A DNA stretch of 64,000 nt from Thermoproteota archaeon. GTDB lineage: Archaea > Asgardarchaeota > Jordiarchaeia > Jordiarchaeales > Freyrarchaeaceae. Below the pieces are notes generated by a model. That model did not search any database. It saw only the letters and a list, made by a program, of their open reading frames with translations, and was not told the DNA's origin. The stretch is taken from the NCBI GenBank assembly GCA_029258835.1, contig JAPDJY010000034.1, forward strand, positions 1 through 64,000, given 5' to 3'. The position numbers and the translations under genes are program-made. Shown here one piece after another: positions 35,258-59,588 of the stretch (position 1 is the stretch's first letter; each line of letters opens with the position of its first letter).

Positions 35258-35386
35258 GCGGGGGTTGCCTAGTGGCTAGCAGGGCAAGAAGCACGCCCAC
35301 AAAAGGCGCTGGCCTGGAGTTAGCTGCTACCTGAAAGCCAGTTCCCCGTTTGGGGAGCGTGGGTTCGAATCCCACCCCCCGCGCCA
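35258..35386 (+). tRNA. tRNA-Ser(GGA), two introns (D-loop 35278-35302; 37/38 35320-35335), CCA encoded
   Basis: Acceptor GCGGGGG/CCCCCGC, G73, long variable arm, T arm GTGGG-TTCGAAT-CCCAC; central helices GUGG/CCAC and CUGG/CCUG (one U.U mismatch). Confidence 0.88.
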
Positions 35387-51921: not shown

Positions 51922-52073
51922 GGTCCCGTCGCCTAGCCAGGAGCTGCAGACTGAAAGGGCGCCGACTTGCAAGAGCGTAAACGTAGGCGTAAGCCTTCTA
52001 AGCCGGAGTTCCCGGGTTCAAGAACCACCACTAAGCAACTTGGTGGTGGTTGAAAGTCCCGGCGGGACCACCA
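51922..52073 (+). tRNA. tRNA-Arg(UCU), three introns (D-loop about 51944-51955; 29/30 51965-51992; 59/60 52023-52056), CCA encoded
   Basis: GGTCCCG/CGGGACC acceptor; spliced arms CCGGC-CTTCTAA-GCCGG and CCGGG-TTCAAGT-CCCGG; clean BHB with long intron stem in the T loop. Confidence 0.9.
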
Positions 52074-53348: not shown

Positions 53349-53444
53349 AGCCCCGGGCGGGTATTCCGACTTGCTTCGAACCCGCGACCTGCGGCTCACC
53401 CGAACACTTACGAGGCCGCCGCTCTACCACTGAGCTACCGGGGC
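53349..53444 (-). tRNA. tRNA-Thr(CGU), two 12-nt introns (37/38 53397-53408; 59/60 53363-53374)
   Basis: GCCCCGG/CCGGGGC acceptor, U73; central helices CUCG/CGGG and UUCG/CGGA with 3-nt bulges. Confidence 0.9.
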
Positions 53445-57127: not shown

Positions 57128-58515
57128 TGAAAGCTCTTGAAATACTAAAGAAAATCCCCCTCTGCAATAGTTGCCTAGGTAGGCAGTTCGCCCTCCTAGG
57201 CATGGGATCAAATAACCCGAGCAGAGGGCATGCCTTAAAGCTAACCCTAACAATGACCGCACACTACATGCTCAGGGAAAATCCCGAGGAGGCCGTCAAG
57301 ATCCTCAAGGTTCTCGCCTCCAACGGAATGTTCCAGCCCGCGGTGGAAACCCTACAGAAGGAAGGAATTCCGATAGAGGTCAGCGAGAATAAATGCTACA
57401 TCTGCGGTGGATTAATGCTCAGAAAAAGGGAAATCGCCCAGAAGATAGCTTCCCTCCTAGAAAATTATGACTACAGAACACTTCTGATAGGATGTCACGT
57501 ACCAATAGACCTCACTGAGAGGGACGATGAAGTTAAAGCCGCACACCAAGTGGATACGGGAGAGTCGCTTAAGGCAGAGTTCAACAGGGAGGTTGGGAAA
57601 ATAGTCTCAGCTCTTACCGGTAAACCAGTAGACTTCAAAAACCCTGACATAGTAGCCGTCGTAAACCTTGAAAACCTAGAAGTAACGATCAACTCAAACC
57701 CGATTTACATTGGAGGACGCTACCTAAAATACGTAAGAGGAATTCCGCAAACCAAATGGCCATGTAAAGCATGCAAAGGGCAAGGATGTCCCCGATGTGG
57801 AGGAACAGGAAAGATGTACCCTGAATCCGTGGAAGAACTCGTAACAGCCCCAATCCTCGAGGAAACCGGAGGGGAAGAAGCAAAGTTCCACGGGGCAGGA
57901 AGAGAAGACATAGACGCGAGAATGCTCGGCACAGGCCGCCCCTTCATAGTAGAAGTGAAAAACCCAAAGAAACGCAACATAGACCTCCAAAAACTACAGG
58001 ACAAAATAAACCAGTACGCCCAGGGGAAAGTCGAAGTCCACTCCCTCCACTTCGCAGTAAAAGAACAGGTAAGACAGCTGAAAGCCCTATCCCAGTTCGC
58101 CCCTAAAACCTATAAAGCCATAGTTAAAGTCGACAGGGAGATAACCTCAGAAGAGCTTAAAGCACTTGAACAAAAACTCACAGGACAAACAGTAAGGCAG
58201 AAAACGCCAAGAAGGGTAGCCCACAGACGGGCCGTGAAAACAAGGCTCAAAAAGGTCTACGAGGCACACGTAAACCAAGTAGACCCTCACACCTTCGAGC
58301 TAATTGTAAAATGTCAAGGTGGACTTTACGTCAAAGAACTAGTAACAGGGGACAGGAGAAGAACACGGCCAAGTGTATCAGAAATACTAAATGCGAAAGC
58401 AGAGTGCACCCAACTAGACGTAATAGACGTAGGAGCAACAATACCCCCACAGGAAGAACAAAACCAAAAAGTTTATTTATCACCCACCTACTCACTCGAT
58501 CACGAGGGCCCGTAG
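57115..58515 (+). CDS. pus10: tRNA pseudouridine(54/55) synthase Pus10
   Basis: LCNSCLGRQFA, GRYLK..RGIPQTKW, FHGAGREDIDARMLGTGRPF, QKTP.RV.HRR, GGLYVKEL. Confidence 0.96.
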   Translation: MYPIVKALEILKKIPLCNSCLGRQFALLGMGSNNPSRGHALKLTLTMTAHYMLRENPEEAVKILKVLASNGMFQPAVETLQKEGIPIEVSENKCYICGGLMLRKREIAQKIASLLENYDYRTLLIGCHVPIDLTERDDEVKAAHQVDTGESLKAEFNREVGKIVSALTGKPVDFKNPDIVAVVNLENLEVTINSNPIYIGGRYLKYVRGIPQTKWPCKACKGQGCPRCGGTGKMYPESVEELVTAPILEETGGEEAKFHGAGREDIDARMLGTGRPFIVEVKNPKKRNIDLQKLQDKINQYAQGKVEVHSLHFAVKEQVRQLKALSQFAPKTYKAIVKVDREITSEELKALEQKLTGQTVRQKTPRRVAHRRAVKTRLKKVYEAHVNQVDPHTFELIVKCQGGLYVKELVTGDRRRTRPSVSEILNAKAECTQLDVIDVGATIPPQEEQNQKVYLSPTYSLDHEGP

Positions 58516-58625
58516 CTCAGCCAGGTAGAGCGACAGGCTCATATCAGCCTACAACTGTTGAGAAACCTGTTGGTCCAGGGTTCGAAAGCATGGAGCTCCT
58601 CCAGCCGGAAATCCCTGCGGGCCCA
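58506..58625 (+). tRNA. tRNA with CAU anticodon, most likely tRNA-Ile2; two introns (37/38 58544-58564; 59/60 58587-58611)
   Basis: GGGCCCG/CGGGCCC-A acceptor typical of archaeal Ile; central helices CUCA/UGAG and UUCG/CGGA. Confidence 0.88.
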
Positions 58626-58928: not shown

Positions 58929-59057
58929 GCCTCGGTGGTGTAGCCCGGCCAAGGTTACGCTGATAGCATAAGGGGCTTAGAGGCTACGTCCTCGCCCAAT
59001 CGACCCCTTGACCCGGGAACCACATGTTCGGGACTTCAAATCCCGGCCGAGGCACCA
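58929..59057 (+). tRNA. tRNA-Glu(UUC), three introns (D-loop 58952-58964; 34/35 58979-58999; 53/54 59018-59034), CCA encoded
   Basis: GCCTCGG/CCGAGGC-A acceptor, GGTGTAG D stem and 4-nt variable loop of Glu; spliced arm AGGGG-CTTTCGA-CCCCT. Confidence 0.9.
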
Positions 59058-59163: not shown

Positions 59164-59341
59164 TGGCGCCGGGGGCAGGATTTCCGTTTGCATCTCGAAC
59201 TTTCGCTCCCTTGGCTGCTGTTTCTAGCCCAGGGATCTGCGACCACCAGGTCGCTGCGTACATGTACATAACAGCCTGGCGCTGACGGCCCGGCGCGCAC
59301 GTGGCGCCTTACACCGTCTACCTGAACTGAGCTACCCCGGC
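59164..59341 (-). tRNA. tRNA-Asn(GUU), four introns (D arm about 59284-59317; 37/38 59252-59268; 52/53 59201-59236; 59/60 59181-59193), CCA encoded
   Basis: GCCGGGG/CCCCGGC-G-CCA; 178 nt minus 34+17+36+13 gives a 78-nt cloverleaf. Confidence 0.88.
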
Positions 59342-59588
59342 ACCTAGTGAATGAGTAGGTTAGTCTTTCTTCTTAAATTTTTCGTGTGTTTACGTGAGAG
59401 CTAGTTGTTGGGATGGTGCAAGCCGGCTGTAAAGCTTAGAGGCTGCTAGAGAGGGTTTAAGATTGCTAGGGTGCTAATGGGCTCATTGGCTGGATGTGTC
59501 ATGTTGCGTGGCTTTATTGGTTTTTCAGCATGTTTATAAGGGAATGTTCTACTATTGTTCATTTGAGTTGTTGCATGGAGGGTTTGGT

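Follow-up and report, generated by a model that had tools for sequence, protein, structure and literature searches.

A four-intron tRNA-Asn(GUU) gene in an Asgard archaeon related to Candidatus Jordarchaeum

Introduction

Can a tRNA gene that is more than half intron, with inserts in all three of its arms, still encode a functional tRNA, and how far does such a gene depart from what has been described for archaea? This question is raised by a locus within a 64,000-nt stretch of DNA (the window; positions 1 to 64,000 of contig JAPDJY010000034.1, assembly GCA_029258835.1), whose source organism belongs to the same family as Candidatus Jordarchaeum and to the same order as Freyarchaeia. A preliminary description made from the sequence had read the locus as a tRNA-Asn(GUU) gene with four introns, in the D arm and at positions 37/38, 52/53 and 59/60, and had regarded three introns as the archaeal maximum. 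The four-intron reading holds in the analysis reported here, but its premise of novelty does not. Three introns was indeed the stated archaeal maximum in 2014, from Thermoproteales (PMC4033280); four-intron archaeal tRNAs have since been published (PMC11291895), which is the very circumstance under which the description had conceded that its novelty would fall away.

Results

Structure of the gene and its spliced product

The tRNA-Asn(GUU) gene occupies 178 nt of the minus strand, running from 59341 down to 59164 of the window. Removal of four inserts of 34, 17, 36 and 13 nt, which together make up 100 nt or 56% of the gene and so bear out the earlier statement that more than half of it is intron, leaves five exons that join into a product of 78 nt. 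ARAGORN calls this spliced sequence tRNA-Asn(gtt), and a strict cloverleaf search described below arrives at the same product, in agreement with the cloverleaf proposed originally. All pairs of the acceptor, D, anticodon and T stems are formed, the anticodon loop reads CUGUUAA and the T loop UUCGAGU, the discriminator base is G, and the CCA end is encoded. Introns are present in all three arms.

All exons and introns are given here in the order of transcription on the minus strand. Exon 1 (24 nt, 59318..59341) carries the 5' strand of the acceptor stem, U8-A9, the 5' strand of the D stem, the D loop and G22, and is near-identical in four Candidatus Jordarchaeum orthologues. Intron 1 (34 nt, 59284..59317) interrupts the D stem at 22/23 and is followed by exon 2 (15 nt, 59269..59283), which comprises A23-C25, G26, the 5' strand of the anticodon stem (CCAGG) and the segment CUGUUA with the anticodon GUU. 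Intron 2 (17 nt, 59252..59268) lies at the canonical position 37/38. Exon 3 (15 nt, 59237..59251) supplies A38, the 3' strand of the anticodon stem (CCUGG), the variable loop UGGUC and G49-G52 of the T stem, which is then divided at 52/53 by intron 3 (36 nt, 59201..59236). Introns 3 and 4 enclose exon 4 (59194..59200), the 7-nt micro-exon GUUCGAG that had already been pointed out; it consists of G53 and T-loop positions 54-59 and recurs as such in all four Jordarchaeum orthologues. Intron 4 (13 nt, 59181..59193) lies in the T loop at 59/60, and exon 5 (17 nt, 59164..59180) completes the molecule with U60, the 3' strand of the T stem (CCUGC), the 3' strand of the acceptor stem, the discriminator G73 and the CCA (59166-59164). 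An A/T-rich box on the same strand, AAAAATTTAA (59373..59382), lies 32-41 nt upstream of the mature 5' end and is a possible candidate for an archaeal TATA element.

Neither ARAGORN nor Rfam (at the gathering score and at E up to 10) reports a tRNA in the unspliced window sequence, which we read as a limit of these detectors and not as an argument against the gene. The locus was parsed exhaustively with our own solver, which combines class I cloverleaves (7-bp acceptor, 4-bp D, 5-bp anticodon and 5-bp T stems) with introns that each form at least three of four central-helix pairs in the register of the BHB rule, and which reports the smallest number of inserts that yields a perfect cloverleaf. 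The BHB motif is defined here as a 4-bp central helix (H) with 3-nt bulges on opposite strands, each cut after its second base. In the strict search no stem mismatch was allowed and no departure at eleven conserved bases, which include U8, A14, U33, G53, the T-loop UUCRA and C61; the spliced tRNA-Asn shows none of either. With three or fewer inserts, the exhaustive strict search of the locus gave no perfect cloverleaf, and with four it returned the proposed parse together with a single T-loop register variant that has a poorer helix. When the interior of the gene was shuffled 32 times with the acceptor kept, none of the searches (0/32, at 25 s per search) produced a perfect or near-perfect parse. 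Tolerant settings (two mismatches and two non-consensus bases) yield hundreds of spurious four-intron parses, and for this reason only perfect parses are used. A scan of metagenomes with exon 1 recovered one JGI contig, which is identical to the window, gives no measure of sequence variation for that reason, and possibly stems from the same sample as the assembly.

Orthologues in the Jordarchaeum family and across Asgard archaea

Orthologues of the tRNA-Asn gene were found in four species of Candidatus Jordarchaeum, the sister genus within the same family. Each of the four is interrupted at 22/23, 52/53 and 59/60; its anticodon loop is continuous. The 37/38 intron is missing from every one of them and is hence the extra intron of the window gene. 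Among the five family genes the exons are 94-99% identical, the introns 24-88%, and the BHB geometry is kept despite this intron divergence: each of the 12 orthologue introns has a fully paired H helix (4/4) and 3-nt bulges. In the anticodon stem, the window gene has the pair A29-U41 where the sister genus has G-C; both sides of the pair have changed, with the 17-nt intron lying between them.

At a greater distance, an intronless tRNA-Asn in an Asgard genome of another family, which scores 74 bits against RF00005, is colinear with the spliced product of the window gene and 85% identical to it, and our tRNA-Asn search also matched coordinates annotated as Asn GTT by Valentin-Alvarado et al. 2024. 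Such coincident hits lie in three genomes (G006, G021 and G031), which are thereby identified; G006 agrees with the Freyarchaeia coordinates, and this assigns the window organism to the order of Freyarchaeia. Across 20 Asgard genomes in which tRNA-Asn could be parsed, the gene contains from zero to four introns, four being found in the window only. In this set the 59/60 intron is common to the Jordarchaeum family, Freyarchaeia, Atabeyarchaeia and one further family, a second T-arm intron occurs at a site that varies by family (52/53, 48/49, 50/51 or 46/47), and the 22/23 intron occurs in the Jordarchaeum family only. The 37/38 intron is found in several distant Asgard families but not in the closest relatives of the window organism; within the order, among the members examined, it belongs to the window lineage alone.

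BHB motifs of introns 2, 3 and 4 and the order of splicing

The helices quoted in the preliminary description are all present in the sequence. In introns 2, 3 and 4 the H helix is fully paired (4/4), and the 3-nt bulges stand where the cut rule demands them. Intron 2 represents a textbook motif of the hBHBh' type (H CUGU/GCAG; bulges UA↓U and CG↓A, where the arrow marks the predicted cut), in which the anticodon stem serves as the outer helix and a small hairpin as the inner one, so that both flanking helices are available. The nearest-neighbour folding model nevertheless favours a shifted register for this motif, which indicates that thermodynamic folding predicts BHB motifs weakly. Intron 3, of the HBh' type (H UCGC/GCGA; bulges AG↓A and AA↓G), has the inner flanking helix h', a long stem with a count of five contiguous pairs, which by inspection continues beyond a G.A mismatch with further pairs. 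One strand of its H helix occupies G49 and C50 and thereby excludes the T stem. Intron 4 (H UUCG/CGGA; bulges AG↓A and AA↓U) has no inner stem, its inner part being a bare 6-nt loop where the sister genus has 3-5 bp. Its outer helix h is the T stem, which amounts to 1 bp in the precursor and to 5 bp once intron 3 has been removed.

Because the 59/60 motif relies on a T stem that is itself interrupted by the 52/53 intron, the ordered splicing suggested in the preliminary description is a reasonable inference. In the full precursor, the H helix of intron 3 has a pair probability of 0.6-0.8, while for the H helix of intron 4 the value is about 0.1, increasing to about 0.5 in a precursor that has lost intron 3; these values come from a folding model and serve as a guide, no proof. 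The 52/53 intron is most likely removed before the 59/60 intron.

Splicing enzymes and the search for a second tRNA-Asn gene

The genome encodes two EndA paralogues at L021:1210-1779 and L022:862-1785 (PF02778 and PF01974, the N-terminal and catalytic domains; 190 aa and 308 aa), for both of which the closest solved relatives in the PDB are archaeal EndA, and one RtcB ligase (607 bits). The two EndA paralogues would fit a two-subunit enzyme of broad specificity. EndA of the two-subunit type cuts relaxed motifs (PMC4033280), and a bioRxiv preprint of October 2026 (10.64898/2026.10.13.758758) gives two EndA paralogues for 44/60 Asgard genomes.

The assembly to which the window belongs (as contig C4) comprises 2.72 Mb in 91 contigs and is 94.7% complete and 6% contaminated. 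A check for further tRNA-Asn genes had been recommended at the outset. Exon-seed BLAST with four tRNA-Asn sequences found no second tRNA-Asn gene in this 94.7% complete assembly, the best other cluster being a tRNA-Lys(UUU), and the gene in the window is thus apparently the only tRNA-Asn gene of the organism. An anticodon-arm scan for a second gene gave 729 candidates and was dropped as too unspecific. A BLAST search of the rest of the genome found no homologues of the four introns; three short matches were set aside as chance hits, as they sit in unrelated and apparently coding sequence.

The D-arm intron and alternative readings of the locus

Intron 1 has the least regular motif of the four, as had been observed from the start. 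Its H helix, AGGU/GCCG, forms three of four pairs with an A.G mismatch beside the 3' bulge (bulges AG↓A and UC↓A), and its flanking helices, outer and inner, consist of 1 bp each. A competing hairpin, GACGGU/GCCGUC, pairs the two ends of the intron with each other, and as a result the pair probability of the H helix is close to zero. The size of 34 nt and the spliced product are those of the preliminary description, but the register given there was one base off: the BHB cut rule sets the intron at 22/23, window 59317-59284, and the product is unchanged since an A stands at both junctions. A cut after A23 was ruled out, as it leaves one of four H pairs. In the orthologues the 22/23 intron is single, 13-22 nt long, and fully paired in H (4/4), as AGGU/ACCU or AGGU/GCCU. 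Intron 1 has the sole mismatched H helix among the 16 introns of the five family members. Given an H helix of near-zero probability and a competing hairpin, removal of the D-arm intron would need refolding or the help of protein.

Two further features of intron 1 were seen by inspection. Within the intron, the hexamer GCGCCA repeats exactly the bases with which exon 2 continues behind A23. At its 5' end the intron reads CGGU, which resembles the exon strand AGGU and is a better pairing partner than the exon for the 3' H strand GCCG. Either the copy or the resemblance could be a trace of an ancestral 13-nt intron growing to 34 nt.

The D-arm insert might also be read as two inserts or as a nested one, which would mean five splicing events and an unchanged mature tRNA. 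A search with five introns does find a perfect cloverleaf, in which a 9-nt piece is accompanied by an intron of 25 nt that is cut at 29/30 (GCGC-CA↓C ... GCGC-CA↓G). This 25-nt piece, which uses the internal GCGCCA copy, has a fully paired H helix (4/4), whereas the single 34-nt intron offers only three of four pairs and a competing hairpin. Yet an intron of 9 nt has no room for a 4-nt H strand together with a loop and a bulge, the H helix of this piece is again paired at three of four positions, and the entire two-insert parse hangs on a 6-nt repeat that may be due to chance. The orthologues, all four of which have one 13-22 nt intron at 22/23 with a complete helix, also speak for a single insert. 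On inspection of the sequence, no inner piece of the D-arm insert was seen whose excision would bring the outer helix back to 4/4. We consider a two-part or nested insert improbable.

The same mismatch might be taken as a sign that the gene is decaying, in which case the D-arm motif would have degenerated, the insert would be poorly removed, the product would be non-functional or marginal, and Asn codons would be read by a further tRNA-Asn gene that the assembly does not include. That the only mismatched H helix of 16 family introns should be found in the D-arm intron, and that the assembly is 94.7% complete and distributed over 91 contigs, would agree with this idea. Against it, no exon is damaged, all stem pairs and conserved bases being in place, and the compensatory change of the 29-41 pair points to continued selection. 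Furthermore, no second tRNA-Asn is present in the assembly, a single orthologous locus was found in each of the relatives searched, and cleavage of relaxed motifs is known from archaea whose EndA has two subunits (PMC4033280), so that decay of the gene seems very improbable to us. Finally, a chance look-alike or an assembly artefact, for which one could cite the blank results of ARAGORN and Rfam on the unspliced sequence and the many spurious parses of a mismatch-tolerant search, has a negligible probability: chance is excluded by the unique strict parse, the negative shuffles and the same exon structure in four other species, orthologues by which the look-alike reading appears effectively refuted, and an artefact is opposed by the identical sequence on a separate metagenome contig, possibly from the same sample though that is.

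With high confidence, we favour the reading that the locus is a functional, and apparently the only, tRNA-Asn(GUU) gene of this Asgard archaeon, from whose transcript EndA would remove four introns and RtcB would join the exons.

Other interrupted tRNA genes of the genome

Rfam reports 19 tRNA matches in the genome at E up to 1, of which 12 lie above the family cut-off. We surveyed class I genes with the solver, taking as candidates those that have a strong acceptor stem and, in addition, either an encoded CCA or a seed match to compact Asgard tRNAs; this census is partial and approximate, since 95/205 and 75/148 of its searches ended at the time limit. It yielded 26 perfect parses, with one insert in 6 genes, two in 8, three in 8 and four in 4, and the mean among these perfect parses of a partial, class I census is about 2.4 inserts. 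By these parses, most tRNA genes of the genome appear to be interrupted, and many of the inserts appear to be non-canonical.

Besides tRNA-Asn, two or three genes of the partial census have four inserts. An Arg(GCG) gene (L103:26-173; G000:C30:24825-24972) has fully paired H helices (4/4) in all four and is colinear with a compact Asgard reference, as is a candidate Phe(GAA) gene (L104:28-171; G000:C42:19037-19180). A Pro(GGG) gene on the minus strand (L105:28-210; G000:C8:46477-46659) is less certain, having 68% identity to its reference and an alternative parse with two inserts. The tRNA-Lys(UUU) gene (L106; G000:C28:4493-4615, minus strand) contains a 22/23 intron (AGGU-AG↓A ... GCCU-AA↓A) and one or two additional inserts. 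The D-arm introns of tRNA-Lys(UUU) and tRNA-Asn share an identical site at 22/23 and an identical exon strand, and a D-arm sequence common to the two tRNAs may explain the presence of an intron in both.

The window itself holds at least five interrupted tRNA genes in addition to tRNA-Asn. One of these, for tRNA-Glu(UUC), has three inserts within about 129 nt (58929-59057, plus strand; boundaries approximate, and with a parsed D loop that seems too short when compared with a compact Glu reference). It converges on tRNA-Asn, a distance of 106 nt separating it from the 3' end of that gene. The pair Asn(GTT) and Glu(TTC) adjoins in Atabeyarchaeia-1 and -2 as well (PMC11291895, Supplementary Data 4). 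Perfect spliced cloverleaves were obtained for an Arg(UCU) gene with three inserts (51922-52070, plus strand), a Thr(CGU) gene with two 12-nt inserts (53349-53444, minus strand) and a tRNA with a CAU anticodon and two inserts (58506-58625, plus strand), all three of which are missed by ARAGORN run without intron search and by Rfam at the gathering threshold. For an interrupted tRNA-like gene at 35258-35383 (plus strand), the ARAGORN intron search gives Gly(CCC), while the solver gives the anticodon UGA with three inserts or GGA with two inserts and one mismatch; the class I Ser parse of the solver is doubtful here and looks wrong.

Among the Rfam tRNA matches of the genome, the best is a Val(GAC) gene (G000:C62:9823-9895, minus strand) that, unlike nearly all of the other tRNA genes, has neither an intron nor an encoded CCA. 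A second Val(GAC) gene, at C1:69546-69632, is interrupted. The intronless Val(GAC) may come from the roughly 6% contamination of the assembly.

Discussion

Multiply interrupted tRNA genes have been described in Asgard archaea since 2024. In three complete genomes of Atabeyarchaeia and Freyarchaeia, introns occur in 92-95% of the tRNA genes (PMC11291895), and Supplementary Data 4 of that study, Valentin-Alvarado et al. 2024, contains columns for a fourth intron. Four introns are given there for Arg(TCT), Ile2(CAT) and Leu(GAG) of Freyarchaeia and for Trp(CCA) of Atabeyarchaeia-2 (PMC11291895). The 2026 preprint, a motif-free census of Asgard tRNA inserts, goes further: in a set of families to which Jordiarchaeaceae belongs it reports as many as five inserts in a gene, with 2.2 inserts per gene in its focal families, and it states that D-arm inserts are missed by tRNAscan-SE (10.64898/2026.10.13.758758). 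The maximum of three adopted in the preliminary description has hence been surpassed by both sources. The four-intron tRNA-Asn is a further case of the kind described for Asgard archaea since 2024; it sets no record and reveals no new mechanism.

The tRNA genes of Freyarchaeia and Atabeyarchaeia offer a close comparison, since these organisms belong to the same phylum (Freyarchaeia even to the same GTDB order) and likewise have most of their tRNA genes interrupted, many at non-canonical positions. Their tRNA-Asn shares the 59/60 intron with the window gene. It differs in having two introns, both in the T arm, the first of which lies at 48/49 or 50/51 and not at 52/53, and in having neither a D-arm nor a 37/38 intron; the window organism belongs to another family. 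The preprint covers Jordiarchaeaceae and arrives at about two inserts per gene, with which the mean of about 2.4 in our partial census agrees. Its main text has no occurrence of 'Asn', and no discussion of splicing order was noted in the text available. Thermoproteales (Sugahara et al. 2007, 2008; PMC4033280) represent another phylum with a stated maximum of three introns, and related intron sequences recur there between genes, whereas the introns of the window gene have no homologues elsewhere in the genome. A eukaryotic nuclear tRNA gene provides a more remote parallel in that all three of its arms are interrupted, which raises the same question of the order in which introns are removed; it has three introns, however, and is processed by a different endonuclease complex.

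The structure and conservation of the gene, as observed, together with its motifs and the enzymes encoded by the genome, would be accommodated by the following course of events. Transcription would yield a precursor of about 178 nt, from which EndA would cut the inserts at 22/23, 37/38, 52/53 and 59/60 at their BHB motifs, and RtcB would join the five exons, including the one of 7 nt. The 52/53 intron would leave before the 59/60 intron, as the latter is without an inner stem and has its outer helix disrupted by the 52/53 motif. The D-arm intron, whose motif is degenerate, would probably refold away from the competing hairpin. A stricter version of this scheme, in which the path is obligatory, such that the 52/53 intron must be excised and its exons ligated before the 59/60 motif can form, and in which the D-arm insert is removed after refolding or by a nested or non-standard cut, strikes us as conceivable but doubtful. 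If it is true, the tRNA-Asn precursor would be a natural substrate with which to define the lower limit of recognition by Asgard EndA.

Given that ARAGORN and Rfam both miss the gene, automatic annotation would score this genome as one without tRNA-Asn. With 56% of its length in introns, a 7-nt exon and introns in three arms, the gene is a well-supported example of the fragmentation of tRNA genes in Asgard archaea. Within its family, the window gene would stand one step beyond the sister genus, and the series of orthologues across related genomes, which leads from no intron through one or two and then three to four, documents stepwise gain at a single locus. In practical terms, the gene offers a test substrate for the order of splicing and for the departure from the BHB motif that is tolerated by Asgard EndA.
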